Positions 3,921 through 48,576 of a stretch of DNA of 64,000 nucleotides are shown piece after piece. Below the pieces are notes generated by a model, which saw nothing but the letters and a program-made list of their open reading frames with translations, searched no databases and was not told the DNA's origin. How positions within the stretch are numbered: position 1 is the first letter of the stretch; each line of letters begins with the position of its first letter. The translations under genes were made by a program, and so were the position numbers. This DNA comes from Acinetobacter phage SH-Ab 15599. The stretch lies in the sequence record MH517022.1. One strand, given 5' to 3'.

Positions 3921-4389
3921 CTTGTCACAAATTTTAACAAAACTTCCGTTGGGCGAATCGATTCTTGATTACTGTATCGAGATCACTCCTGTAGTTGCAG
4001 CTGACGGGCGTTTCAACTCTTTCAATTCAATTCGAGAGACATTGAAGCGTATTGGGGTTGTATCTAAATCTGACGACAAAGTATTGACCCAATCTTGCCA
4101 TATCTTCTTACACAACGGCAAATATTACATCATGCATTTTATGATGATGTTTATGTTTAATGGTTCTCCTTCAAAAATTACTTTGCGGGATATCAAGCGT
4201 ACTGTAATCGTAGCCAAATTACTTCAGAAATGGGGTTTGGCTACGATTAAGAATCTAGATGTCATTGACGTTGAAACGACTGATAATGAATTAGAAGGTT
4301 TACGCGTTATCAAATATAAAGACGCCAACCAATGGTATTTCAAAAGTCTTTATAAGATGAAAAAGGAAACGCCGAATGGAAATGTATGA
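3913..4389 (+). CDS. regA: RegA translational repressor homolog
   Basis: DKVLTQSCHIFLHNGKYYIMHF matches T4 RegA DKVLYQSCHILQKKGLYYIVHF. The order 45-44-62-regA is conserved with T4. Confidence 0.65.
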   Translation: MNSLSQILTKLPLGESILDYCIEITPVVAADGRFNSFNSIRETLKRIGVVSKSDDKVLTQSCHIFLHNGKYYIMHFMMMFMFNGSPSKITLRDIKRTVIVAKLLQKWGLATIKNLDVIDVETTDNELEGLRVIKYKDANQWYFKSLYKMKKETPNGNV

Positions 4390-5251
4390 TCTAACGCTAC
4401 CCCGTTGGTTGAACTATTGTAAAGCAATGGTTGAAGTGAAAGATGTTGATCCAGTATATGACGGTTTGACAGGCGCGAAAGAAGAAATTGGACATGAACA
4501 ACTCTGTAACTTCTTAGTCTCATTCTCATTGTTTTATTCAATGGAAGAAAGTTGTAAAATTGTCTCAAATAAAATTCCAACTGTATTGATGTGGGATTTT
4601 ATGATTGAACATTACAAATATATGAAGCGCGGTAAAGCTAGACGATATTTCCGTGGCCAGGCTGGTTTGGATTGTCTTCATTATTTGAAAACTCATTTTG
4701 TAAGCCCTGTTCAATTCGTAGAATTAATGTATGCCCCTGACTATAAGGGTATCATGAGAAATTTTGAACCAGTACCTGCTTTCGGGGGTTATCACACTTG
4801 GAAGTGGTTAGATTTCTATGAACGCGTATTAGGTAAACCAGTTGAGCTTGATTATGAGTTGGGTGCAAAGGTTCTTCCGTCTGAACCAACCAAAGGCGCA
4901 AGACTCGTTCATTTAGAAATGTGTCCTCACAAACCGTTTGATTTAGAATCTATTCTGCGTTACATGGTTAATGAATGTAGAGAGCTTGGGCTCAAAGCTC
5001 CTCCATATGACGGGCGTTTAGTCGGTATTCAAGAAATTGAAACTATGCTTTGTGGTATTGTTCACATGTATAAAGGTAAGCATGTTGATTATATCGGTAA
5101 AGATGTAGCAGAGAAATATCTTGATGTTGAACGCATTGGGGAAGCTGATAATGATTGGTTATTGAAACATATGCCTCAGCCTATGTCGAAAGAACTAACA
5201 TTCACCGATCCATATTTCAATAATACTTTTTCTTTAATGGATATTTTATAA
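4376..5251 (+). CDS. Hypothetical protein, 291 aa
   Basis: Long ORF with an RBS (aagga) 8 nt upstream of the ATG. No recognisable motif. Confidence 0.5.
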   Translation: MEMYDLTLPRWLNYCKAMVEVKDVDPVYDGLTGAKEEIGHEQLCNFLVSFSLFYSMEESCKIVSNKIPTVLMWDFMIEHYKYMKRGKARRYFRGQAGLDCLHYLKTHFVSPVQFVELMYAPDYKGIMRNFEPVPAFGGYHTWKWLDFYERVLGKPVELDYELGAKVLPSEPTKGARLVHLEMCPHKPFDLESILRYMVNECRELGLKAPPYDGRLVGIQEIETMLCGIVHMYKGKHVDYIGKDVAEKYLDVERIGEADNDWLLKHMPQPMSKELTFTDPYFNNTFSLMDIL

Positions 5252-6771: not shown

Positions 6772-7821
6772 ATGACAATCCACGCCTTTATCAATTCTGC
6801 TTTATATCGCAATTCTGAAATCTCTGGTCAATATGTTGTTTTTGGTAAAGAACCAAAGGACAAGGAATGTAAACGAGACTTTTATTTGAAATTGCGTCAT
6901 CCAGATACTGGTAAAGAGTTTGGCGTTCACATTTATGCTAAAGATGTCATTTTTAAAGATGAGAATGCCAACATTGTACATTTAGCTAATGGGCGAGTGA
7001 AGTCTTCCTCAGCTTCTGATTCTCAACCATCAACTGTTGTAACTCAAGAACCTGAGTTGACGGATGAAGAGTTGGATCGTATCATTTACAAACGTTTTCA
7101 AATTATGAGCCAATTGAGCGATTCTCTCATTCTAGGTCATACCAAAGCGTTGATTATTTCAGGAGCTCCTGGTATCTCTAAAACATTCACTCTTGAACAA
7201 AAATTGGATGATGCTTTGGAGTCTGGAGTAATTGAATCATTTGAACATCTCAAGGGGCGTGTTACACCTCTTCAGTTGTTTGTGAAACTTTATGAAAATA
7301 AAGACCCAGGCCACATTCTTTTGATTGATGACGTTAATCTATGGGGAGAAGAGAACTCAATTGAATTATTGAAGGCAGCTCTTGATACGGGTTCAAAACG
7401 TAGTGTAACTTGGGCGTCAACCGCGTCTTGGTTAAAGGAACAGAAGATACCAGAATCATTTGAATATGAAGGTTCTGTTTGTTTTATCACAAACGTTGAT
7501 TTTGACCGAGCAATAGCTCGCAATACATCTGCATCTGTTCACTTGAAAGCTCTTATCTCAAGAGCAAACTATCTTGATTTGAAAGTACACTCAAACAAAG
7601 AGATTCTTATCAGAGTGAAACAAATTGTGCGCGACTCATCTATTCTACAGTCAAATGGATTGTCTGAGGCGGACGGTAAAGAAATGTTACAATGGATGGA
7701 AGATAACATCGAGAAACTACGCGAGTTGTCTCTCCGCACGGTATTGAAGATAGCATCGTATATGAATACAAACCGTACAGATTGGACTGAAATTGCCGAA
7801 GTAATGCTGTTGAAAAAGTAA
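6772..7821 (+). CDS. AAA+ or P-loop ATPase
   Basis: Walker A motif GAPGISKT and Walker B motif ILLIDD. N-terminal roughly 110 aa of unknown function. Confidence 0.6.
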   Translation: MTIHAFINSALYRNSEISGQYVVFGKEPKDKECKRDFYLKLRHPDTGKEFGVHIYAKDVIFKDENANIVHLANGRVKSSSASDSQPSTVVTQEPELTDEELDRIIYKRFQIMSQLSDSLILGHTKALIISGAPGISKTFTLEQKLDDALESGVIESFEHLKGRVTPLQLFVKLYENKDPGHILLIDDVNLWGEENSIELLKAALDTGSKRSVTWASTASWLKEQKIPESFEYEGSVCFITNVDFDRAIARNTSASVHLKALISRANYLDLKVHSNKEILIRVKQIVRDSSILQSNGLSEADGKEMLQWMEDNIEKLRELSLRTVLKIASYMNTNRTDWTEIAEVMLLKK

Positions 7822-7884: not shown

Positions 7885-8577
7885 ATGCATACATTTTGTA
7901 AGAACCGCAACGAACAACCAAAAACAACTGCAGTGTCATCTGTAATGAGCGGTTTGTTTGAATTTTGTGAAGCTATGGACAGCCGTAACCCTCCATCTGA
8001 GTTCATTATCAAAGACCGCAATATTGAATTGTTTCATTACAATGCGAAAATTGGTGTTACCAGAACAGCTGCTACTCAACATGAAGAAATTAAGGGAGAT
8101 GTTTTCACTACAACAGACCAATTGATTATTCACGGTACAAACTGTCTAGGGGTAATGGGGGCTGGGTTCGCTAATGTAGTAAAATATCGTTATCCAGATG
8201 TATATGATGAATATCAATTACATTGTCGCAAGAACATGTCTTTTGTTATTTTGGGTACAGTTCAATTTGTGAAATCTGAATGCATGGACAAGAAGATAAT
8301 TGGCAATGTCTTTACTCAAGAGAGTGTAGCAGGTCGAGTTGCTGGTCGCCCTTTCAAGTACAGAGCATTCATGTTAGCTATGGCAGATGTAGTGAAATAT
8401 TGCAAAGCAAATGGTCTCACTTCTTTTTCAATGCCTCGTATTGGATCTGATCTAGGGGGAGGAGACTGGGAGGTCATTAAACATATCCTTTGGTTCATGT
8501 TCCATAATACAGGGATTAAACCAAATGTATATGTTCTAGAGCGCCCTGCATTTGGTATGTTCAAAGGGGATAAATGA
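7885..8577 (+). CDS. Macro-domain protein (ADP-ribose binding or processing)
   Basis: IIHGTNCLGVMGAGFANVV matches the macro signature (VNAAN...GGGGV..AI). A second glycine-rich block FSMPRIGSDLGGGDWEV is present. True start probably at an internal Met. Confidence 0.6.
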   Translation: MHTFCKNRNEQPKTTAVSSVMSGLFEFCEAMDSRNPPSEFIIKDRNIELFHYNAKIGVTRTAATQHEEIKGDVFTTTDQLIIHGTNCLGVMGAGFANVVKYRYPDVYDEYQLHCRKNMSFVILGTVQFVKSECMDKKIIGNVFTQESVAGRVAGRPFKYRAFMLAMADVVKYCKANGLTSFSMPRIGSDLGGGDWEVIKHILWFMFHNTGIKPNVYVLERPAFGMFKGDK

Positions 8578-10019: not shown

Positions 10020-11147
10020 ATGCCAGCCGCCTATCCTTTGTTTATTCGAGGTGCAACTATCAATGAAACGGTCTATAATGCTATCAAAGCAATCATGGAA
10101 AACGGGTCAGAAATTGAAACCCGTAATGGTTCAGCTAAGTTCTTAAATGATTTAACTCTTCAAATCGATGATCCACGCCAGCGTCATCTCAGCCTTAAAG
10201 GGCGTACATCTAACATCTTTCAAATGATGGCTGAAACCTTCTGGGTGATGGCTGGTCATAGTCAAGTGTATAATTATCTCAATTTCTTTTTACCACGCGC
10301 TGTTAATTATAGCGATGATGGTAAAACTTGGCACGGCGCATATGGTCCGCGTCTGTATTGTTATAATCAGATGGAAGACTTGAGAGCAACATTTGTTCGA
10401 GAAGGTAAATCAACGCGCCGCGCTATTCTGATGATTGCGGATCCATCTATTGATAATTTGGATTATATCAGAAGCACTTATCAGTCTGAAACTCCTAAAG
10501 ACATACCATGTAACCGAGAAATTCATTTCTACATTACAGACAATGAATTCCACTGTAAAGTGATTCAACGTTCTGGTGATATGATCTTTGGTACGGGTTC
10601 TATCAATCCATTTGAATTTACATTCCTTCAAGAGTGTATCTATACCCGTCTGATTGAATTGCCTGGGTTTGAAGATGTAAAATTGGGTCATTACCGTTGG
10701 CACGTAACAAACGCTCATATCTATTCAGATCATTTCCAACAAGCTGAAAATATCATTACATCTCATCAGGTTCTAGAGGCGAGAGATTCTGAAGTAATGA
10801 GTATGAAGTGCTTATATAATAGAGAGGAGATGCACGAAATCATAACGGAAGTTGAGAATCTTATCTCAATACCTAATCCAGATTTCCTCATTGAAAAAGT
10901 AAAGAACTTATATCCAATGAGCGATTTTGTTGAACCAATTGAACTTTATCGTTTATTAGTTAGAACATATGCTATCGCAAAACGTTTGAAGACTCTAAAA
11001 TCAGACAAGAAATTAGTTCTTCAATTACCAACAATCAATAATGATTTGTATTATGCCATAACTGAAAGTACATTCCTCAATTTTGAAATTGTACATGGCT
11101 CATATACAAAATATATTTTTAAACCAAGTGACTCTATCGGAGCGTAA
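10020..11147 (+). CDS. Thymidylate-synthase-family pyrimidine hydroxymethylase (gp42-like dCMP or dUMP hydroxymethylase) with a roughly 100-aa C-terminal extension
   Basis: TS-fold motifs: RRAILMIAD, catalytic PC in DIPCNREIHFY, VIQRSGD, and HIYSDH aligned to TS GDTHLYSNH. Cys is followed by Asn rather than His, as in T4 gp42. Confidence 0.75.
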   Translation: MPAAYPLFIRGATINETVYNAIKAIMENGSEIETRNGSAKFLNDLTLQIDDPRQRHLSLKGRTSNIFQMMAETFWVMAGHSQVYNYLNFFLPRAVNYSDDGKTWHGAYGPRLYCYNQMEDLRATFVREGKSTRRAILMIADPSIDNLDYIRSTYQSETPKDIPCNREIHFYITDNEFHCKVIQRSGDMIFGTGSINPFEFTFLQECIYTRLIELPGFEDVKLGHYRWHVTNAHIYSDHFQQAENIITSHQVLEARDSEVMSMKCLYNREEMHEIITEVENLISIPNPDFLIEKVKNLYPMSDFVEPIELYRLLVRTYAIAKRLKTLKSDKKLVLQLPTINNDLYYAITESTFLNFEIVHGSYTKYIFKPSDSIGA

Positions 11148-11150
11148 CCA

Positions 11151-12326
11151 GTGTCCAAGCTTATTGTTTTATGCGGAGAACGCAATACAGGAAAGGATTT
11201 CCTAACTCAAGCTGTAACAAATCATATGAAACAATATGGTATACGCGTACACCGTCTTTCTTTCAGCGATGAAGTAAGACGTATTGCATATAACATTTTT
11301 CCGTTTTTGAAAGACGTTCCAGAAGAAAAGAAAAATGACCCAATCTATGGGGAGCCTAACAATCCATATAACTACTCTTGGCGAGATATCATCAAAGCAG
11401 TAGGTCGTATGCTACGTGATGTTGACCCTGCAATCTTTGCTAAGAAGTGGTGGACAAATCAGGGTCAACGTGTAGTGGATGGTACAGACAAAGACATTTT
11501 CTTTGTAACAGATATGCGCACTCAAAATGAATACGATTTGATTGAAGCAGAAGGTACGCTGGACGACGTAACTTTTGTGAAATTGGTATCTGATACTGGT
11601 CTACCTCCAGATGACTTTGAAGCTTGGACTCGAGATTTTCAAGGAGATTTCTTGTTCAAGAATGAAAGAGATGAAGCGTCTGCTAAGTCATTCTGTGAAA
11701 TTGTAGAGGGGTTTATTCAGCGCCCTAACCGTGCAAATTCTACAATGATTGCTGAATTGTTAACAATTCAAGATGAACTCAATAATGTTTATTCAGGCGA
11801 TACAGATTGGTTGAGTCAAGCTAGTCTTTCAAAATATGCAACTGCTGCTGACCGCGAGTTCTCTGAGTTCTTAGATGAGATCAGTACTCATTGGGCATGG
11901 TGGAAACCAGATACAATCTTTGATGTTAACAAAGCAATGGTTGAATTCTGTGACTTCATTTGTTTCCGTCTTTCAACATTCCTTATCAAGTTCTCAACGT
12001 CAGAACACGATCTTGATTATTCAGCTTTGTTTGATTATGTTAAAACGCGTGACTTCTCTCAAGAAGCCCGTATCAAAGTTGACTATGACGGTTGGTATAA
12101 GATCATCAAAACTGAAGGCTTTGATCTGAATAATGATAATTTGGATGAAGCAATCTTAGGTCTTATGACTGAGATCAACGTAACGTTAGATATGTTTGAT
12201 TTAGACCTAGCCCATTTCCATTCCACTATGATTAAGGTGTTCGAACGCAACCGAGAACGCGGCAAAAAGCTTTCAGCAGGTCTTCCTGTGGATAAGCAAA
12301 ACGAACAAGCAATTTTAACTGTTTAA
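11151..12326 (+). CDS. Fusion of dNMP kinase (gp1-like) with a MazG or gp56-like dCTPase-family NTP pyrophosphatase
   Basis: The N-terminus LIVLCGERNTGKDFLT matches T4 gp1 LIFLSGVKRSGKDTT. The C-terminal half (WAWWKPDT, MVEFCDFICFRL) aligns to T4 gp56 dCTPase (WKPWKK, EIKFELIDQFHF). Confidence 0.7.
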   Translation: MSKLIVLCGERNTGKDFLTQAVTNHMKQYGIRVHRLSFSDEVRRIAYNIFPFLKDVPEEKKNDPIYGEPNNPYNYSWRDIIKAVGRMLRDVDPAIFAKKWWTNQGQRVVDGTDKDIFFVTDMRTQNEYDLIEAEGTLDDVTFVKLVSDTGLPPDDFEAWTRDFQGDFLFKNERDEASAKSFCEIVEGFIQRPNRANSTMIAELLTIQDELNNVYSGDTDWLSQASLSKYATAADREFSEFLDEISTHWAWWKPDTIFDVNKAMVEFCDFICFRLSTFLIKFSTSEHDLDYSALFDYVKTRDFSQEARIKVDYDGWYKIIKTEGFDLNNDNLDEAILGLMTEINVTLDMFDLDLAHFHSTMIKVFERNRERGKKLSAGLPVDKQNEQAILTV

Positions 12327-14973: not shown

Positions 14974-17900
14974 ATGTCTCAAATTTTTCTAGAAGCATTT
15001 AATAGTCAACCATATGATACCGAGAAGGTTGAAAAGAATGGGTTGATGGATATTGTTTATACATTTCAGGATGAATCAAATAATGAATTTCGTTATCATT
15101 TTGAAAAACGCGTAAACTATGGTCGTAATGTATTTGTTTGTACCCTTGGTCAAAAGACTCCAAATCTAAAAACATACAAGCGCATCTTCTCCAATTTTAA
15201 AAATCCAATGCGTGTAATTGCAACGCTGATTAACATTGTTAAAGACGTACATGCCACTCGTAAAGATGTGAAGGGTATTATCTTTGAGATGCCAACTCAA
15301 GCCTTTGGTGCACACGGTAAATTGGTTGATAAAATCCTAGCTCGTGAATTGCGTTCTGTTATTACTGTTGAAGATATGAATTTCTCTATTGAAGAATTTG
15401 AGAAAATGCAACTTCAAGGTACAGTGACAACAGTGAAGCCTAACCGTATGCAAGATGTGTATACTGGTAAGATCATGAATGATATCTTTGCTCAACGCTC
15501 TGCTGGAACGGCAACAACTCCGGCAAAACAGCCTGTTGAAATGAAGAACATTAACCTCAGTACATTCAAAGCAGCTGCACCTCATGTGCCTCAAGCCGCT
15601 GAACAAAATGCCTCTACTGCCCCGAAGGTTGAAGCTGGTAATCTTAGTGGCCAAACCTTTAAAATCTCTGCTTATGACCGCGTAGAAGGCGCTCGTATGG
15701 AGATTGACTTTGCTAAAGATGATTCCGTCACTATTGGTGGGATCAAACGTCCAATGTCAAATTATCTTACATCTGTTGTAGACAAAGTGTTTGGTTCTCA
15801 ACCAGTTGATACAATCAAGAAGGTTGTAAACAAGTTGGTTGTTGATCTTCATCTCGGTACAGTAGAAATTGCTGACCAATTAGTGAATTTGAAGAAGGTA
15901 TTGGAAAAGGAAGGAGCAAAAGTCTCTCTTGAAACTCCATTCCCAGCTGCTGAAACGTCTCCTGAACCGTTTCCAGGCAGCCAAACTACTGACGGCGTGA
16001 AATTCAACTTCTCTTATGAAACTCATGTTCTCACTATGCCATCTGTTAAGGGCTACGATATTGGTTTAGTTTTGAATCAATTGTTAGGTGCATTCTCAGA
16101 ATCTTTTGAGAAGATGTCAAACAATGCGTATAAGATGGTAAAAGAGGAATTTCCAATTGAAAATTTCCTTGGTTTGTTAGCGAAGGTATCATTCAATAAA
16201 TTGATCGCCACGCGCATTTCCCCTAATTGGAGAAAAATTGTAGATGAAGCAGAGAATGTATACAGTCTATCAACTACATTCTATACATTGGTTGATCCAG
16301 ATTCTGAAAAATTTTTGGATGACTACGGTATCCTTGTTACATTCAAGAAAGATGATGCTGGCGTCTATCGTTTCATGAATTTGCAGTCTAAATCTAAATT
16401 GACAGAAGCAGCTATCAAGAAAGTACAATCTGCAGGAGCTTCAGTTGTTGATCAAGGTATTTCAGTAGCAATTACTGAAGATTGTAATCTTGAAAATAGT
16501 AAGGTTATTGTAGAGTTCATCAAAGCAAGTGACGACGCTTATACATTCGCGAGCCAAAGAGCGATCGATTACAAATTCAACGGTTACAAAGCAACCTACA
16601 AACCGAAGTATGCTGAAGTGAGCGTTCGCTTCAATAATACGCATATCTGCGGTCTTGAAGGGACTCCATTAGGTTCTTGGAACTCTGTTGTTACTAGCGA
16701 TAATACCATTGAATTTCTTATGATCAACAGCATTGAGAAGTTCTATCAATTGATGGATGCTCTCAAAGATTTCAACTTCCCTGAATTGTTGCCAACAGCT
16801 ATTAGAAATGGAAGCCAATACATTGCCGATGTATATGCTACTACTGGTTTGGAACAAGGCGAGAAAATATTCCCGCTTAAATCTGGCGGAGAGCTGAAAG
16901 TGGAGATTTACGGTGGTCTTATCTTCGCTACCATCAGTGGAGCTTCTTTCCCAGTAAATCTCAGACATCCAGAAGTGTTCTTCAACAAAGAGCGCACAAG
17001 CTTCCGTCTTTCTACTCAAGAATACAATACTGATGGCATTAAAGATTTCTTTGCTTCATTTGATGCTTTTATTAATACTCAATTGAACTCGGTTATTGGA
17101 AAAACTAATGAGCCTGTTATCTATGAAGCAACTGGTAAGTTTGAGACCACTGGCGTTGAAATTGTATTGACTCCTAGAGATAAAGTGTCAGCTTCAGTCG
17201 CTAAACAGGTGAAAGAAGTTATCAAAACTGTAGATGATACAGTTGCAGAAGCAGTTCAACCAGTGACTATTGATTTTGATAATCAAGGGCTGATTACCAT
17301 CAAAACAAACAGTATCTTAGCAGCGTATGTTGCTTGTGAACAGTTGATCGAGCAAACGAACAAGATCAGTAACTTTGCTATTATCAAAGTAAAAGAGTTG
17401 TTTGATGCTACTGGTTTCAACAAGAAAAGCCTATCTGTTGAATATAATTTTGAAGTTACTGGCAAAAATTCTGCCAATGTCAAGGTTCCAGCTGGCGCTC
17501 AAAAATCAGTTACAATGATTGCTCATTGTTTAGGGTTCTCTTTGAGTAGTGTTGATAACGGGGTACTTTCATTCCAAGGTGGAAATCCATCAGCTTTACA
17601 TTTTAACATTCATGTTCTTGGTAAACAATTGAAGACTCCGGAACTTTCTACTGATAAACCAGATGTAGTTATTCAGGCAACTAAAACTCTGGCTAAAAAG
17701 GCTCCTAAACTGGATAAAGTACGTCTTAATCCAGAAGCGTACTCATTTACAGCTGACGGGCGAGAGATTGCTCGCGCAGTAAAACGTAAAGTCAAGGGTG
17801 TGGATTCATCTGGTTGGGATGTGAGTGAATTTCAATCTGGAATTTCTCTTACTCAGTACAATTCTGTTGTAACGCTATTCAATGAATTTAAAGCGAAGTA

Positions 17901-18822
17901 CATTGCTTGGTTTATGGAAAATGCGGCTAGTGTTCAGATTCCAGAACTTGACCTTGGTCAATTCTCCACAGTGAAACCTGACGTCAAAGCGGCGTTCAAT
18001 ACTCTTTCTGTGGGTCTTCCGTCTCAAGACCGTGACAACAGTAAAACATTTGAATCAAATGGCGTAATTGTTAAGATTTTTGACAAAGGTGTTTCATTTG
18101 AGTCTGTTACTCCTAAGGGAAGCGTATCAAATATTGAGACTCGTCTGAAAGCTCACGGTTTGAAGACTTCTAAACGTATGGTTGGGGATATTGTTCTCAA
18201 GTTCTCCCGTGGAAGAAACGACTATGAAATGCGTATCAATGAAAATCGCATTATGTTCAAAGGTGTGCCGCAAGGTGTTCCTCATTCAGCTTCAAACTTT
18301 GTCAACGTTCCATCTTCTGTAGCTAATGGAACAGAAGCGCAAAACAACTTGATTAGAGACGGCTTGAGAAAGCTCTACACTGAAGAGGCTCCAGCGGCTC
18401 GTTTCTCTCGCTTCTTAGCTTCTATGTCTAGTCTTAATGAAACAACTAATACAGACGATAGACGTAAATCTCAAGTGACAGTTGACATTGATATGACTAA
18501 GCAAGCGAATGTAGACCTCATCAAGTCAATCCTGTCTCCATCCGGTAAGATGAATGAGTCTATCAAAGAAGATTTGACTGGCGTAGCTCCTAAGCGTAAC
18601 AAAGTTGATAAGAAATTGTTTGAAACTACATTACGCGGTCTAGGGTTCTACCAACCTACATTCTCTTATGGCGGCGCAGGGTTCCAGTTGACTTTGAATG
18701 AAGGTGTAGTTGATATCCTACCAACTTATGGTAATATCGTAAATCTTCAGAAGTTATTGAAGGCTCGTTTGGGCGCTGAGATTGTTACTGATGATCGCGG
18801 CGGCTTAACATTCTGCTTTTAA
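14974..18822 (+). CDS. Large hypothetical protein, 1282 aa, orphan
   Basis: Uninterrupted 3.8-kb ORF with RBS agagga. No recognisable catalytic motif. Occupies the position of primase gene 61 in T4. Confidence 0.6.
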   Translation: MSQIFLEAFNSQPYDTEKVEKNGLMDIVYTFQDESNNEFRYHFEKRVNYGRNVFVCTLGQKTPNLKTYKRIFSNFKNPMRVIATLINIVKDVHATRKDVKGIIFEMPTQAFGAHGKLVDKILARELRSVITVEDMNFSIEEFEKMQLQGTVTTVKPNRMQDVYTGKIMNDIFAQRSAGTATTPAKQPVEMKNINLSTFKAAAPHVPQAAEQNASTAPKVEAGNLSGQTFKISAYDRVEGARMEIDFAKDDSVTIGGIKRPMSNYLTSVVDKVFGSQPVDTIKKVVNKLVVDLHLGTVEIADQLVNLKKVLEKEGAKVSLETPFPAAETSPEPFPGSQTTDGVKFNFSYETHVLTMPSVKGYDIGLVLNQLLGAFSESFEKMSNNAYKMVKEEFPIENFLGLLAKVSFNKLIATRISPNWRKIVDEAENVYSLSTTFYTLVDPDSEKFLDDYGILVTFKKDDAGVYRFMNLQSKSKLTEAAIKKVQSAGASVVDQGISVAITEDCNLENSKVIVEFIKASDDAYTFASQRAIDYKFNGYKATYKPKYAEVSVRFNNTHICGLEGTPLGSWNSVVTSDNTIEFLMINSIEKFYQLMDALKDFNFPELLPTAIRNGSQYIADVYATTGLEQGEKIFPLKSGGELKVEIYGGLIFATISGASFPVNLRHPEVFFNKERTSFRLSTQEYNTDGIKDFFASFDAFINTQLNSVIGKTNEPVIYEATGKFETTGVEIVLTPRDKVSASVAKQVKEVIKTVDDTVAEAVQPVTIDFDNQGLITIKTNSILAAYVACEQLIEQTNKISNFAIIKVKELFDATGFNKKSLSVEYNFEVTGKNSANVKVPAGAQKSVTMIAHCLGFSLSSVDNGVLSFQGGNPSALHFNIHVLGKQLKTPELSTDKPDVVIQATKTLAKKAPKLDKVRLNPEAYSFTADGREIARAVKRKVKGVDSSGWDVSEFQSGISLTQYNSVVTLFNEFKAKYIAWFMENAASVQIPELDLGQFSTVKPDVKAAFNTLSVGLPSQDRDNSKTFESNGVIVKIFDKGVSFESVTPKGSVSNIETRLKAHGLKTSKRMVGDIVLKFSRGRNDYEMRINENRIMFKGVPQGVPHSASNFVNVPSSVANGTEAQNNLIRDGLRKLYTEEAPAARFSRFLASMSSLNETTNTDDRRKSQVTVDIDMTKQANVDLIKSILSPSGKMNESIKEDLTGVAPKRNKVDKKLFETTLRGLGFYQPTFSYGGAGFQLTLNEGVVDILPTYGNIVNLQKLLKARLGAEIVTDDRGGLTFCF

Positions 18823-32622: not shown

Positions 32623-33609
32623 ATGTCATTCTATGTTTACAAACTAACAGTTGAAGATCAAGAGTTACCATTTTATATTGGTAAAGGACAAGGCAACAGA
32701 GCGTACTATCATTTCAAGAACGATTGTTTCAACAATGACTCAAATCGCCACAAAGTCAATACGATACTCAAAGCCAAGAAAGAAGGCAAAGAGATATTGG
32801 TTGAGTTTGTGAAGCACAATTTGACGGAACAAGAAGCTCTTCAGTTCGAAATGGAACTCATCTCTCGTTATGGTAGAAGGGATATTGGAACTGGATGTCT
32901 CACAAATATGACAAACGGCGGAGATGGGGTAAGTGGTCTAGTTCACTCTGAAGAAACAAGAAAGAAATTAAGCAATATATCTAAACAACAATTCAGTTCT
33001 CCAGAGGCGAGAGAACAACTGAGATTGTATAGCAGAAAGGCTCAACAGATAATCTGGGGAAGAGATAGACAAAAACACGTAGAAAGGGTCAAGAAGCAAG
33101 CCAAAGAGAATTATGAAAACGGCAATAAAGAAAATCTCTTAAACGGCATTAAAAACTGGGTAGAGACTAATCCAGAACAAGTGTTGGAACGTAATAAAAA
33201 GATTAAGGAAGCCATGAGTTCGGACAAGAATAGACAACTCGTAGGCGAAAGAACTAAACGCCTCTATAATGATCCAAGCTACCGTGCAGCTGTATTCCCG
33301 CCGTTCCATCGTTCACCTCGGTATTTGAAACCATCTGCGCCTGATTTAAGAGAACGTCAAATGTTATGTGCATGCCTCGGTCTGTTTTACAATTTTTGGG
33401 TTGAGAATGGTAAGAGAACATTCAGTTTCTATGAGAACCCTAACAGCGTTGGATTTGCTTTCGATAACAAGATACTGGTTCAACCAATTAAACAATTTCA
33501 AATGGGATACAACCCGTGGGATTGTGAAGAGTATGTGCAGTGGCATACGACTCAACCAGTAGATCAATATTGGAAAGAATTGAATATTACCAATAAGAGG
33601 GTAAAATAA
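32623..33609 (+). CDS. GIY-YIG homing endonuclease (Seg-like) with NUMOD-like repeats
   Basis: N-terminus YVYKLTVEDQELPFYIGKGQGNRAYYH is the GIY-YIG motif. Downstream SEETRKKLSN-type repeats resemble NUMOD modules. Confidence 0.85.
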   Translation: MSFYVYKLTVEDQELPFYIGKGQGNRAYYHFKNDCFNNDSNRHKVNTILKAKKEGKEILVEFVKHNLTEQEALQFEMELISRYGRRDIGTGCLTNMTNGGDGVSGLVHSEETRKKLSNISKQQFSSPEAREQLRLYSRKAQQIIWGRDRQKHVERVKKQAKENYENGNKENLLNGIKNWVETNPEQVLERNKKIKEAMSSDKNRQLVGERTKRLYNDPSYRAAVFPPFHRSPRYLKPSAPDLRERQMLCACLGLFYNFWVENGKRTFSFYENPNSVGFAFDNKILVQPIKQFQMGYNPWDCEEYVQWHTTQPVDQYWKELNITNKRVK

Positions 33610-44661: not shown

Positions 44662-46308
44662 CTAGAAAAGGGAGTTAAGGCTGAATGAAGTCGGTGCCTT
44701 AGCCTCCCATTTGATTGCGACTAAAAAGTTTGTAAGTGGATTGATAAAACATTTACTGAATGCAGCATCTTTATCAATGAACTTCTCAAGATTAAACTCC
44801 TTCGGTAGTTGATCATCATACGCAATAACTTCCATACCAAACGGTGAGCCTTTTCTTAAAGGTAACACGTAGTATTTATTGCCGCTACGAAGTGGCATAA
44901 TTTGCGGTGCATCAACCTTAGTTAATAAGGTATTATGATTTATCGCCCCTTTAACATGATATGGGGTTCCTTTAACCGCAACGCCGTTACTGAGATAATC
45001 TTCAATATTGTTGATATTCTGAGCCGCCCCGTATTCATTGATATTACGAGATTTCATGAATTCAACTTCACACTTTGCTACAAAATCATGTAGTTCAGTT
45101 TTCTTCTCTTCAAGAGCCAATTGATAGCCCGTTTTCATCCACTCACGGCAGAACATTGGGTAGTTAGACTTGCGAGCCTCTAAACCAACGATTTTAAGCT
45201 TAGGAGTGGCGTAGCGCACGCCTTCGTTATCAGTTAATAACATAGCGTAACGCTTCTTGGTTGTAAAGATTGCTACCATAGCAATAGCTTCACGTTTGAA
45301 GAACAAAGCGTTGATTGGACAGTTATATGATGAAGCTAGTTCTTCAGCCCATTGAATGTATAGAGGTTCAATGGTTGTAGTCATCAATTCATCAAGCTTA
45401 TCTGTAATCTCAGAATCTGATAATTCGTCCCATCCAGAAGCCTTAACCACACCTTTGAACTCAGTATAGATCGAGTCAGTATCTCCATAGAAGCAATGGT
45501 CACCTTCAAGATTATAAGTTTTGTTGATCCATTCATTCAACTTAAACATAATATGTCGAGTTGAACATTGACCCGCAGTTGTAATAGCTTCAGCAATACG
45601 GATTTCAAAGTGGTCGGCGAAGTTTTCATTTGCAATCGCGCCATAACCCGCGTTTGCAGCAATCTTATGTGCGTGTTGGTTTGAGTCTCCGTTTTGGATT
45701 TTTGTTTCCCAAACATCATATTCTTTGTAATACGCTTCTGTCTTCTCTAATTGCTCATCCAAGTATTTTTTCTTGAAGGATTCAAGAGAACGTTCATCGT
45801 CTTTCATTGCCTTTTTAATGACCTTACGCGTATCATATAGGTCTTTGAATACACGGCGCAACAATGAAGGTTTTTCAGTCTTAAACATTGCAAGGTTTGG
45901 AGCCATACAGACTTTCAAACGTTTGAGAGTTTGGAACTGATATGGGGCTTCAAAGTAGATGTCCCAAATACCTTTACGCTCACGGAAACGTTGAGCATAT
46001 AAACGGGTGTATTGGGTTTGTTCTTCTTCCGGAATATCATCCATCTCTTGAGCCAGAGCGTCAAGAATCTTCTCTGTAATACCCCAAGGTACAAGCGTCT
46101 CAATACCCATGTTGAATTGTTGTGCCATATGCGGATAACCTATGTGTTCAGATGAGTTCGTGATTCTCACCTCGGAATTACATCCAGCTGTATGTCGCCA
46201 TACAGAGCAGACTATATCATCACCCACGTTATACGTTTGGTACGCTGTTGTAAGTAGCGCAGATGAGCTATACTCACCGTGTCTCCCGTTTCCATTTAAG
46301 CCATACAT
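44662..46308 (-). CDS. 43: DNA polymerase gp43, C-terminal fragment (family B palm, fingers and thumb)
   Basis: Motif B KIAANAGYGAIANENF and motif C YGDTDS. The track extends to 46323 through a GTG. The first ATG is at 46308, one nt after the stop of the HNH gene. Confidence 0.85.
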   Translation of the reverse strand: MYGLNGNGRHGEYSSSALLTTAYQTYNVGDDIVCSVWRHTAGCNSEVRITNSSEHIGYPHMAQQFNMGIETLVPWGITEKILDALAQEMDDIPEEEQTQYTRLYAQRFRERKGIWDIYFEAPYQFQTLKRLKVCMAPNLAMFKTEKPSLLRRVFKDLYDTRKVIKKAMKDDERSLESFKKKYLDEQLEKTEAYYKEYDVWETKIQNGDSNQHAHKIAANAGYGAIANENFADHFEIRIAEAITTAGQCSTRHIMFKLNEWINKTYNLEGDHCFYGDTDSIYTEFKGVVKASGWDELSDSEITDKLDELMTTTIEPLYIQWAEELASSYNCPINALFFKREAIAMVAIFTTKKRYAMLLTDNEGVRYATPKLKIVGLEARKSNYPMFCREWMKTGYQLALEEKKTELHDFVAKCEVEFMKSRNINEYGAAQNINNIEDYLSNGVAVKGTPYHVKGAINHNTLLTKVDAPQIMPLRSGNKYYVLPLRKGSPFGMEVIAYDDQLPKEFNLEKFIDKDAAFSKCFINPLTNFLVAIKWEAKAPTSFSLNSLF

Positions 46309-46309
46309 T

Positions 46310-47209
46310 TCAGGCACCCACACTTGGCTGTACTATGTCTTGCGACTGTCTAGTCGTTGAACCTTTCAGAATTTCTTTGATCTTTACAGTATAAACAGAA
46401 ACATCTAATCCTTTGAGATTTAATGGTCTGACGTAATTGGAAGTGAGAGCGCCGCTGTTAGTAAAAATCGCTTTACCATCAACATGAGCCTTTCTATAAA
46501 AATCGAACAATTGTTCTTCTGTCCAATTCTTAATTTCTTCTTTCTTACGTTCAAGACTAGCTTTGAATTTGTTCTTTCCTTCTTCAGATTGCATAGGGTT
46601 GTTTGTAGAGAACCCCTTGCCATCTAAATGATGAACTAATTCTCCAGAAGTATATCTTGGATCATTCTTTTCAGTCATGAATATATTCCCATCTTTGTCT
46701 TTTACAACAACTCGACCAGTCATATATTCTTTACTTTTTTGAACGATAGCTTTAGCAGTCTCTGCATCAGCGCCCATATATTTCTTCCCTTTCATATCAA
46801 GGCGTTGTACACCTTTCTTTGAAAGACTAATCTTTTGCTTCACATCTTCTCTTTTAGAAGGATTGTTTTCTCCGCTGTTTAGTTCTCTAGCTAATTTTCT
46901 TGCCGACTCACAATATTCAGCCCCATCTCTGGTTGTTACCATAAGATGATAGGCATATCCTGTAGATTGAGTCTTTGCACCTAGCATAAGAAGTCTATGT
47001 GCTTCCACGTGTTCTAATATAGATAATTCTACAATATTCCACTTGGCGTTTCTGTACTCATAAAAATCGCAGATTGGTAAAATATGATGGCGCTCAACAA
47101 CATCAGAACCTTTAGCAGATTGAATGTATTCAACGTATTGCTCTAGCAACGCGCTGTCTCCATTCTTATAAGTCTGCTTCAAAGCATCTAACATCTGTTT
47201 ACCGTTCAT
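46310..47209 (-). CDS. HNH homing endonuclease with NUMOD-like modules, inserted inside gene 43
   Basis: HHILPICDFYEYRNAKWNIVELSILEHVEAH is an HNH motif. GENNPSKREDVKQKISLSKKG is a NUMOD3-like repeat. Reading frame differs from both pol fragments. Confidence 0.8.
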   Translation of the reverse strand: MNGKQMLDALKQTYKNGDSALLEQYVEYIQSAKGSDVVERHHILPICDFYEYRNAKWNIVELSILEHVEAHRLLMLGAKTQSTGYAYHLMVTTRDGAEYCESARKLARELNSGENNPSKREDVKQKISLSKKGVQRLDMKGKKYMGADAETAKAIVQKSKEYMTGRVVVKDKDGNIFMTEKNDPRYTSGELVHHLDGKGFSTNNPMQSEEGKNKFKASLERKKEEIKNWTEEQLFDFYRKAHVDGKAIFTNSGALTSNYVRPLNLKGLDVSVYTVKIKEILKGSTTRQSQDIVQPSVGA

Positions 47210-47301
47210 AATCACTAACTCTGACTTGGCTGCTGATTGTCTCAGTGAGATTTCCCAGCAATTAAAGAGATTTTCATTGTGTTATTTCTAACACAAGCCC
47301 C

Positions 47302-48576
47302 CTATATGTTAAGGGCATTTGCATCGCTAGACATTACATTTTCATAACGCCCTGGGGTCACCTCTTTAACATAACCTCCGGCATAGTCTGGTTTTGAGTT
47401 TACGCGTGGACGAATTTCAGAAAACTCATTGTTACGCGCCCCGTAACCATACATGAGATATTGCCAAGGTAACACGGTTGCATTTGTATCATCTGGATTA
47501 CAGTGATACAAGAATGCTAATGTATACGCCAGTTGCAATAGTTTTGTTTTCTGAGCAATACGCAATACCAAGTTTACGTCGTGAATGTTATATCCAATAT
47601 AGTTTTGGTAATCTTTGATATAAAATTCTGTTAAGCTTGAGAACTCGCTATGATCAACCTTTTCTTCTTTGAGATAATGTTGAGCTGCAGTATTCAGCTT
47701 GTTGTTATCCAATTCAATAAAGCCGTGTTTTGCTACACTTTCTTTTAAGTCTAGGTTTGAAATACCTGAGATTGTAAATGTAACCTCTTCACCATATTTG
47801 CCGTTGAAGGTACGTTTGCGACAGTAACCATGAGGTGAAATACGATTCAGAATATCTCGACCCAACAGCTTATCAATGCGGTTACAGAAGTACGCAATAT
47901 CAAACGTATCACTGTTCCAACCTGAGATGTAGTCATATTGGTGGGATTCATACTGATCTACAAAATCATACAGAAGATCAATTTCATTATCATATCCAAC
48001 ATAGACAATGTCTTCTGGCTTGACCGTCTTACGAACTTGCTCAGGTAATTTGTTTACATCAAATGTACCCAAATCATGGCCTTGGAAATGCTCTAGACCT
48101 AACACATAGAACTTTTCAGTGAATGTATCATATGTTGTAATGGCTGTAATAGGGTATAAGGCTAATGCAGGATCAGGGAAGGGGCCAGGCTGAATTTTAC
48201 CGTCAGCAGTAATTGTACCAGATTCAACCTCAATATCGACCAATGCCCCTCTGATATATTTCATATCAAATTTGATTTCTTTTTCAGGGTAATGCTCTGC
48301 TGAGTATTGAGCTAATGGGTTATCAATACCGTAGATTTTGAAGTTGGGGATGTTCTTCATCTGCTCCATCCACTCTTCCATAGCGTAGTTGTTATCAAAC
48401 ACTATGCGTTCAAGAGGGATACCATTCAGAGACTTATAAGGACTATCAGCATTTGTAGATACGGTATACAAAGAAGGCTGAAAACTAATTTCACGCATCT
48501 TTCTCACGCCGTCTTCAACATAGCGCTCAAGAATGCGGTCTTTCTGTTTTGTTAGGTTGGTATAAAAGCGTTGCAT
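47302..48576 (-). CDS. 43: DNA polymerase gp43, N-terminal fragment (exonuclease domain up to motif A)
   Basis: MQRFYTNLTKQKDRILERYVEDGVRKMREISFQPSLYT parallels the T4 gp43 N-terminus. The fragment ends ...VMSSDANALNI at a TAG inside the motif-A (DxxSLYPS) position. Confidence 0.85.
   Translation of the reverse strand: MQRFYTNLTKQKDRILERYVEDGVRKMREISFQPSLYTVSTNADSPYKSLNGIPLERIVFDNNYAMEEWMEQMKNIPNFKIYGIDNPLAQYSAEHYPEKEIKFDMKYIRGALVDIEVESGTITADGKIQPGPFPDPALALYPITAITTYDTFTEKFYVLGLEHFQGHDLGTFDVNKLPEQVRKTVKPEDIVYVGYDNEIDLLYDFVDQYESHQYDYISGWNSDTFDIAYFCNRIDKLLGRDILNRISPHGYCRKRTFNGKYGEEVTFTISGISNLDLKESVAKHGFIELDNNKLNTAAQHYLKEEKVDHSEFSSLTEFYIKDYQNYIGYNIHDVNLVLRIAQKTKLLQLAYTLAFLYHCNPDDTNATVLPWQYLMYGYGARNNEFSEIRPRVNSKPDYAGGYVKEVTPGRYENVMSSDANALNI

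Follow-up and report, generated by a model that had tools for sequence, protein, structure and literature searches.

The closest known system to the one considered here is that of Acinetobacter phage SH-Ab 15599 itself, for which Li et al. (Nucleic Acids Res, August 2026; PMC13458397) reported a pathway leading to alpha-1,3-diaminopropanylthymine (dapT). The present study concerns two adjacent genes of the same phage, gp17 and gp18, in a 64,000-nucleotide (nt) stretch of sequence record MH517022.1, hereafter the window. In the published work, liquid chromatography coupled to mass spectrometry (LC-MS) found dapT in virion DNA, where it replaces approximately 23% of the thymine; it was the sole modified nucleoside found, the dC/dG ratio was 0.98, and the modification blocked several restriction enzymes. 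According to Li et al., dapT arises after replication from 5-hydroxymethyl-dU (5hmdU) through a 5hmdU DNA kinase (5-HMUDK), which was purified from the 15599 system in that work, and a diamine:DNA transferase named 'Pplase2', and the pre-replicative part of the pathway consists of a dCMP deaminase, a 'dUMP HMase' (hydroxymethylase) and a DNA polymerase. When the pathway was transferred to E. coli, dapT was detected in DNA only with DctD, HMase, gp18, 5-HMUDK and Pplase2 together with supplied 1,3-diaminopropane, and the same enzyme set without added diaminopropane gave putrescinyl-thymine (PMC13458397). The DNA examined here is the same DNA, with gp17 corresponding to the 'dUMP HMase' and gp18 to the 'bifunctional dTTPase/dUTPase' of that report; the locus is thus an already published system, to which the present finding adds little. 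The two genes very probably constitute the nucleotide-pool, pre-replicative half of the thymine-hypermodification pathway of SH-Ab 15599. An earlier sequence-only reading of this DNA had predicted from the same two genes that the virion would contain a hydroxymethyl-pyrimidine or a base modified further, and the published LC-MS detection of dapT bears this out.

Comparison with other phages places the SH-Ab 15599 system among the thymidine-hypermodification systems typified by Delftia phage PhiW-14, which makes alpha-putrescinylthymine. Among cultured phages, Acinetobacter phage nACB2 is the nearest relative. It is collinear with SH-Ab 15599 over its first 16 genes, and its hydroxymethylase and fusion protein are 56.7% and 50% identical to gp17 and gp18, respectively; PhiW-14 comes next. 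The PhiW-14 genes stand in the same order as in the window, namely gp230 (dUMP hydroxymethylase), gp231 (deoxynucleoside monophosphate [dNMP] kinase), gp232 (dUTPase), gp233 (a short hypothetical protein preceding UvsX) and gp234 (UvsX). PhiW-14 gp230 carries a C-terminal extension as gp17 does, and the dUTPase gp232 is approximately 34% identical to the C-terminal domain of gp18. The two phages differ in that PhiW-14 encodes its kinase and dUTPase in two genes, with an overlap of 4 nt at their ends, while SH-Ab 15599 encodes one protein of 391 amino acids (aa), and in the final base, which is putrescinyl-thymine in PhiW-14 and diaminopropanyl-thymine in SH-Ab 15599. In ViI-like phages the kinase and dUTPase are likewise separate adjacent genes.

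Two more distant systems provide useful reference points. Phage T4 gp42, gp1 and gp56 belong to the same three families and follow the same logic, in which a hydroxymethyl-dNMP is made and phosphorylated and the competing canonical deoxynucleoside triphosphate (dNTP) is destroyed. However, the T4 base is cytosine and gp42 carries Asp179, while the SH-Ab 15599 base is uracil/thymine and gp17 carries Asn196; T4 gp56 is a dCTPase/dUTPase, while gp18 hydrolyses dTTP and dUTP but not dCTP; and T4 keeps its kinase and pyrophosphatase separate and its gp42 without an additional C-terminal domain, while in SH-Ab 15599 the former are fused and gp17 is extended. The later modification also differs, being carried out by glucosyltransferases in T4 and by a DNA kinase and a Pplase transferase in SH-Ab 15599. 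The solved structure closest to gp17 is that of MilA, a CMP hydroxymethylase of Streptomyces (PDB 5JNH and 5B6D; Foldseek E approximately 3e-19), which shares with gp17 an extra C-terminal domain after the thymidylate synthase (TS) core. The two proteins differ at the positions associated with base and sugar, with Asp186, Ala176 and Lys133' in MilA (CMP, ribose) and Asn196, Ser185 and Arg133 in gp17 (the pattern for uracil and deoxyribose).

Both open reading frames (ORFs) are present on the + strand as described in the sequence-only reading. The first (10020-11147; 375 aa) was identified by exact sequence look-up as gp17, AXF41386.1, which GenBank labels 'deoxyuridylate hydroxymethyltransferase', and the second (11151-12326; 391 aa, with a GTG start) as gp18, AXF41387.1, labelled 'hypothetical protein SHAb15599_00018'. 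Two ORFs upstream of these, looked up in the same way, were assigned to SH-Ab 15599 as well. The start codon of gp18 lies 3 nt past the stop codon of gp17, with a GGAG a few bases upstream; translational coupling of the pair is probable. Around gp17-gp18, signals from scans for promoters and terminators did not exceed the shuffled background. The window has a GC content of 38.1%, in agreement with the 62% AT given for the SH-Ab 15599 genome in PMC13458397; the genome comprises 143,204 bp. A megablast search of the GenBank phage collection, of which MH517022.1 is not a part, found no close DNA-level relative of the locus.

The membership of gp17 in the TS superfamily is clear from its match to Pfam Thymidylat_synt (PF00303; 45.3 bits against a cut-off of 24.3), from its match to phrog_3676, the phage 'thymidylate synthase' family (7e-89, residues 20-359), and from its AlphaFold2 model, which matches MilA and many TS structures with Foldseek E values of 1e-14 to 1e-19. 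The TS-fold motifs pointed out in the sequence-only reading are genuine and fall at P163-C164, Q183-R-S-G-D187 and H233-I-Y-S-D-H238. In all 111 homologues examined, Cys164, Asn165, Arg184, Ser185, Gly186, Asp187, Gly191 and Ile195 are invariant, as are Asn196, Glu199, His233 and Tyr235. The catalytic and nucleotide-binding residues C164, R133, R184, D187, H233 and Y235 are all invariant, with R134 nearly so, and this set aligns with C146, R126/R127, R166, D169, H207 and Y209 of E. coli TS. Hydroxymethylase membership is further indicated by orthology, since gp17 shows 41.6% identity, across 94% of its length, to PhiW-14 gp230, annotated as a dUMP hydroxymethylase, and shares its gene neighborhood with PhiW-14, a phage known to make 5hmdUTP.

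The substrate of gp17 can be predicted from the specificity position, for which an Asn/Asp rule is cited in PMC8670742 from a 1992 source. The sequence-only reading considered this position, within the motif NPFE, to be ambiguous, but hhalign, MAFFT and HMMER alignments all place Asn196 there. Profile-to-sequence alignment by hhalign (probability 98.3) places Asn196 on Asn177 of E. coli ThyA, the loop ahead of it having one extra residue, and a MAFFT alignment of E. coli ThyA, T4 gp42, M6 gp58, PhiW-14 gp230 and the nACB2 protein makes the same pairing. In that alignment M6 gp58, which is the TS homologue encoded by a further phage that hypermodifies thymidine, also has Asn at the position of Asn196. 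HMMER pairs Asn196 with the Asp of the MilA motif 'VSDVF', which, counted from Cys155, is Asp186, a residue for which the MilA study names T4 Asp179 and the Asn found in TS and in dUMP hydroxymethylase as equivalents (PMC5175136). Asn196 therefore stands where a dCMP hydroxymethylase has Asp, and as a uracil-type specificity residue it points to dUMP as the likely substrate. The residues facing the sugar are also of the deoxyribose type, as Ser185 and Arg133 occupy the positions of Ala176 and Lys133' in MilA. These comparisons predict that gp17 is a dUMP hydroxymethylase, with the hydroxymethylase chemistry, taken alone, being ascribed to it by homology.

Two residues of gp17 set its family apart. 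Asn165 (10512-10514) and Glu199 (10614-10616) are invariant in the 111 members and are not common to E. coli TS (which has His147 and Ser180), T4 gp42 or MilA; M6 gp58 shares Asn165 and has His where gp17 has Glu199. Asn165 and Glu199 are candidate catalytic residues specific to the family, perhaps serving to add the water by which a hydroxymethylase differs from a methylase. The sequence-only reading had described the residue following the catalytic Cys as Asn rather than His, like that of T4 dCMP hydroxymethylase; the absence of His is correct, but the likeness to T4 is not, as gp42 reads Cys-Thr-Asn at this point and not Cys-Asn.

Past the TS core, gp17 continues for approximately 125 residues, in keeping with the earlier description of a hydroxymethylase of the TS family that is extended at its C-terminus. 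AlphaFold2 models gp17 with confidence (mean predicted local distance difference test [pLDDT] score 93.8, predicted template modeling [pTM] score 0.92), and among solved structures the model is matched best by MilA chains, 316-319 residues long, which Foldseek aligns over approximately 366 columns (template modeling [TM] score 0.68 by query and 0.79 by target), compared to only approximately 250 columns for classical TS structures. The model thus identifies the extension as an extra domain of the MilA type. In MilA this domain consists of five helices and lies away from the active site, and its truncation yields insoluble protein (PMC5175136). Homologues from PhiW-14, Serratia, Vibrio and many metagenomes, with a median length of 368 aa, keep the extension, and this conservation makes it a family trait instead of a peculiarity of gp17.

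The C-terminal domain of gp18 belongs to the dimeric dUTPase family. Residues 200-288 match Pfam dUTPase_2 (PF08761) with 27.8 bits (cut-off 22.9), and a profile of the domain built from 49 homologues matches dimeric dUTPases of Campylobacter, Leishmania, Trypanosoma and S. aureus phages, the best being the C. jejuni enzyme 1W2Y (E 3.1e-24). The acidic, metal-binding residues Glu236, Glu239, Glu265 and Asp268 are invariant in the 49 homologues, and the base-contacting residues Q13, N17, Y35 and W56 of the C-domain model presented by Li et al. are Gln207, Asn211, Tyr229 and Trp250 of gp18. T4 gp56 also falls in PF08761 (25.4 bits) and aligns with the gp18 C-domain in hhalign with a probability of 97. 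According to PMC13458397, gp18 in purified form cleaves dTTP and dUTP into the respective monophosphates and pyrophosphate, and its activity was undetectable on 5hmdUTP, on the other dNTPs including dCTP, and on ribonucleoside triphosphates (NTPs). The label 'gp56-like' is therefore right for the family of this domain and wrong for its substrate, and the dCTPase activity proposed in the sequence-only reading is contradicted by the published assays.

The N-terminal domain of gp18 resembles T4 gp1, the dNMP kinase Dnk. The dNMP kinase family phrog_139 is matched over residues 1-200 (1e-22), and a profile of 76 homologues matches T4 Dnk (PDB 1DEK) with E 7.1e-22, a relationship that single-sequence PDB searches with gp18 missed and that required the family profile. 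In hhalign the domain aligns with residues 2-228 of the 241 residues of T4 gp1 (probability 98.6). The P-loop GERNTGKD is of the gp1 type (GVKRSGKD in T4). Four further residues align with T4 residues: two of them, Arg78 and Glu127, do not vary among the 76 homologues, and the other two, Asp121 and Arg123, hardly vary. PhiW-14 gp231 is collinear with this domain and 36% identical to it. Fold, P-loop and profile homology all indicate a T4 gp1-like dNMP kinase, although the Pfam matches remain under their gathering scores (DNMK, 16-18 bits against 27.1).

The two halves together confirm the fusion of a gp1-like kinase to a gp56-family pyrophosphatase that the sequence-only reading had recognized, and gp18 as a whole is collinear with PhiW-14 gp231 and gp232. 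The fusion is not a sequencing artefact, because an identical 391-aa protein has been deposited as AXF41387.1 and nACB2 and metagenomes contain fused homologues that are 38-54% identical. When 1.84 billion representative proteins were searched exhaustively, approximately 10 of the 138 matches were fused proteins of 370-435 aa and the remainder were single-domain proteins; the kinase-dUTPase fusion is a recurrent yet minority form. A structural model of gp18 from a shallow alignment (6 to 11 relatives in a word-index search) reached a pLDDT of 83 and a pTM of 0.58, at which the arrangement of the domains is left uninterpreted; Foldseek matched one half of it to 3CH4 (phosphomevalonate kinase) and 1DEK and the other half to dimeric dUTPases. 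Table 1 gives the coordinates of the domains and key residues of both proteins, together with those of two neighboring transferase genes.

Table 1. Positions in the window of the domains and key residues of gp17 and gp18 and of the two aGPT-Pplase genes
Feature	Residues (approximate for domains)	Window coordinates	Strand	Basis
gp17 TS-fold core	~1-250	10020-10769	+	Pfam, PHROG, homologue alignment
gp17 nucleophile Cys164	164	10509-10511	+	Invariant in homologues
gp17 specificity residue Asn196 (uracil-type, predicted)	196	10605-10607	+	hhalign, MAFFT, HMMER alignments
gp17 C-terminal extension, mostly helical	~251-375	10770-11144	+	AlphaFold2, Foldseek, homologue lengths
gp18 N-terminal domain, T4 gp1-like dNMP kinase (predicted)	~1-190	11151-11720	+	phrog_139, profile, hhalign
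gp18 P-loop G9-ERNT-G14-K15-D16	9-16	11175-11198	+	gp1-type GxxxxGKD
gp18 C-terminal domain, dimeric all-alpha dUTPase family	~195-391	11733-12326	+	PF08761, profile, hhalign
aGPT-Pplase clade 2, amino-acid/diamine:DNA transferase		4376-5251	+	PF18724 ADDT, E 2.7e-5
gp16 (AXF41385.1), aGPT-Pplase clade 1, PF18723 'HMUDK_hel', 321 aa		8961-9926	+	PF18723, E 6e-40

Several observations weigh against the assignment of gp17 and gp18 to the dUMP-based, pre-replicative half of the pathway. Two weaker alignments disagree on the specificity position, as a single-sequence phmmer comparison with the TS 7TA9 puts Glu199 there and ungapped alignments to T4 gp42 pair Ile195 with Asp179; both pairings are regarded as probable artefacts of the one-residue loop insertion. 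The hydroxymethylase activity of gp17 is a prediction from the co-expression reported in PMC13458397 and from homology. In addition, two pathway genes were not found in the 64-kb window: the 5hmdU DNA kinase, sought with M6 gp54 and PhiW-14 gp37 by tblastn, phmmer, hmmsearch with a two-sequence hidden Markov model and a Walker-A scan, and the dCMP deaminase, sought by tblastn with M6 gp65 and by the HAE...PCxxC motif. Presumably both genes lie elsewhere in the 143-kb genome, of which 79 kb are outside the window. Finally, Li et al. assign the phosphorylation of 5hmdUMP to host dNMP/dNDP kinases, and the main text of their report covers only the C-terminal domain of gp18, with no mention there of a kinase domain.

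Other explanations of the locus need to be considered alongside the one favored here. The sequence-only reading leaned towards hydroxymethylcytosine (hmC), that is, towards a T4-like system in which gp17 is a dCMP hydroxymethylase, the C-domain of gp18 is a dCTPase, the kinase acts on hmdCMP and the DNA contains hmC or glycosylated hmC. Such a system would account for the lack of the TS His following the catalytic Cys, for the fact that the best solved relatives of gp17 are the cytosine-specific hydroxymethylases MilA (E 6e-15) and T4 gp42 (3e-5), and for the kinship of the two gp18 domains with T4 gp1 and gp56. It is, however, extremely improbable, as the specificity residue is Asn196 and not Asp, the gp17 orthologue is the PhiW-14 dUMP hydroxymethylase, and the neighboring genes include those for aGPT-Pplases 1 and 2, enzymes that work on 5hmdU within DNA. 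The glycosyl or arabinosyl transferases for which the sequence-only reading proposed a search were not found among the window ORFs scanned, which contain the two aGPT-Pplase-type transferases of Table 1 instead. The published data have already refuted an hmC system, given the dC/dG ratio, the position of the modification on thymine and the lack of dCTPase activity in gp18 (PMC13458397).

It is also very unlikely that gp17 is an ordinary TS making dTMP and gp18 a housekeeping dUTPase joined to a thymidylate-type kinase, neither of them having a role in base modification. Many gp17 homologues are labelled 'thymidylate synthase' in GenBank and PHROG, gp17 has all TS catalytic residues and, like TS, an Asn at the specificity position, and by the published figures 77% of the virion thymine is unmodified (PMC13458397). 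Yet gp18 destroys dTTP, which would be senseless beside a producer of dTMP, and the family has an invariant Asn165 in place of TS His147. Moreover, the family lacks an equivalent of the C-terminal residues with which E. coli TS covers part of its active site when folate binds, and carries the MilA-type domain instead, and the PhiW-14 orthologue of gp17 is annotated as a dUMP hydroxymethylase. The 5hmdU in the DNA also needs a source; no TET/JBP-type oxygenase was found among the window ORFs scanned, and the gene set that E. coli needed to form dapT included gp17 (PMC13458397). The reading of gp17 and gp18 as enzymes that prepare 5hmdU for incorporation is preferred over both of these explanations.

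A further alternative accepts the published pathway but holds that the N-terminal domain of gp18 lacks catalytic activity or is a structural remnant only, perhaps serving as the scaffold of a dNTP-synthesis complex or as a regulator of the dTTPase, so that host kinases act on 5hmdUMP. Li et al. invoke host dNMP/dNDP kinases (PMC13458397), their reconstitution in E. coli does not distinguish the work of a host kinase from that of the gp18 N-domain, and the Pfam matches of the domain are beneath the gathering scores. This explanation is considered rather unlikely. The GxxxxGKD P-loop of the domain is intact, and so are the residues it has in common with T4 Dnk, with the conservation among the 76 homologues described above. 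The kinase is also kept as a separate gene beside the hydroxymethylase in PhiW-14, ViI-like and Vibrio phages, a retention that argues for selection on enzymatic function, and a review of such pathways states that hmU phages have a dNMP kinase of their own that serves 5hmdUMP (PMC8989533). An active kinase is the more likely reading because both its catalytic residues and its position beside the hydroxymethylase are conserved, and the N-domain is most probably the predicted phage 5hmdUMP kinase, all of the activity ascribed to it being a prediction from homology. A T4-like dTMP kinase fused to a dTTPase would cycle futilely, and the gp18 kinase is therefore predicted to discriminate against dTMP. 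We somewhat favor the view that gp18 is an enzyme of three activities that shapes the nucleotide pool, in which the N-domain would supply the missing phage 5hmdUMP kinase and would be selective against dTMP and dUMP.

The pathway may be envisaged as follows, the gene identities, the uracil-type specificity residue, the domain homologies and the synteny being established by the present analysis. Cys164 of gp17 would attack C6 of dUMP, methylene-tetrahydrofolate would provide the carbon, and the resulting exocyclic methylene would be hydrated rather than reduced, giving 5hmdUMP. The C-domain of gp18 would convert dTTP and dUTP to monophosphates and pyrophosphate, an activity demonstrated by published experiment, and would in this way remove the competitor dTTP and recycle dUMP to gp17. 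The N-domain of gp18 would then phosphorylate 5hmdUMP to 5hmdUDP, host nucleoside diphosphate (NDP) kinase would produce 5hmdUTP, and the phage polymerase would place 5hmdU in DNA. After replication, a 5hmdU DNA kinase presumably encoded outside the window would phosphorylate the hydroxymethyl group, and Pplase2/DADT would displace the phosphate with 1,3-diaminopropane on part of the 5hmdU, yielding alpha-dapT; conversion to dapT by the DNA kinase and Pplase2 likewise comes from published experiment. The dapT formed shields the DNA from restriction enzymes.

The window contains further genes expected of thymidine hypermodification. The clade-2 aGPT-Pplase gene scores slightly under the cut-off for PF18724 ADDT (24.5 bits against 26.2) and is matched by M6 gp51 in tblastn (8e-12), supplying the clade-2 member of the gene set. 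Its product is 48.8% identical to nACB2_005, and PMC13458397 states 49% identity between the Pplase2 enzymes of the two phages. In all likelihood it is the published '15599 Pplase2 / DADT', which joins 1,3-diaminopropane to phosphorylated 5hmdU in DNA. Directly upstream of gp17 lies gp16, a clade-1 aGPT-Pplase that is 43% identical to M6 gp55 and 67% identical to nACB2_010 and that represents a marker gene of thymidine hypermodification. M6 gp55 is dispensable in vitro (PMC8989533), the main text of PMC13458397 makes no mention of the clade-1 paralogue gp16, and no later paper resolving the function of the clade-1 Pplase or of M6 gp55 was found. It is possible that gp16 handles the 5hmdU that is not converted to dapT. 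PhiW-14 gp229 was considered as a homologue of Pplase1 and rejected, the homologue being gp72.

Some of the surrounding genes are conserved in related phages. The ORF at 6772-7821 (+), gp12, was considered as the 5hmdU DNA kinase and rejected, as it has no similarity to known 5-HMUDKs. The gene lies within the block of modification and replication genes, and its 349-aa product carries a P-loop of the AAA-like kind (GAPGISKT), matches phrog_1250 (1e-100), a family whose label carries no function, and is 72% identical in nACB2. Two genes upstream of gp17, a Macro-domain protein is encoded at 7885-8577 (+) (Pfam Macro 1e-5; phrog_335 'phosphatase' 1e-33), and its position is kept in nACB2 (34% identity) and in metagenomic contig L007 (3907-4575). 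Gene order on a metagenomic contig runs Macro, PF18723 protein, TS homologue, fused kinase-dUTPase, UvsX and DnaB. The ORF at 14974-18822 (+) encodes 1282 aa with no Pfam match, and a protein of similar size between DnaB and ligase also occurs in nACB2 (1093 aa) and contig L007 (1267 aa).

Putative mobile elements also occur in the window. The family-B (T4 gp43-like) DNA polymerase is encoded on the - strand in two ORFs within 44662-48576, an N-terminal part at 47302-48576 and a C-terminal part at 44662-46323, with an HNH/homing-endonuclease ORF at 46310-47215 between them, and the polymerase gene looks as if it has been split by a mobile element. A homing-endonuclease-like ORF (32623-33609, +; phrog_314 1e-14) directly follows the major head protein gene.

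The modification to which gp17 and gp18 contribute protects an Acinetobacter baumannii phage from host restriction and has a bearing on phage therapy and on enzymatic DNA labelling. To the published pathway, the current study contributes a sequence-level reason for the predicted dUMP specificity of gp17, namely Asn196, and the recognition of its extension as a probable MilA-type domain. It also points to two parts of that pathway, the predicted kinase domain of gp18 and the clade-1 Pplase paralogue gp16. If the predicted kinase is active as proposed, a single polypeptide would clear the canonical nucleotide and also move the modified one forward, and the published 'host dNMP kinase' step would need to be corrected.

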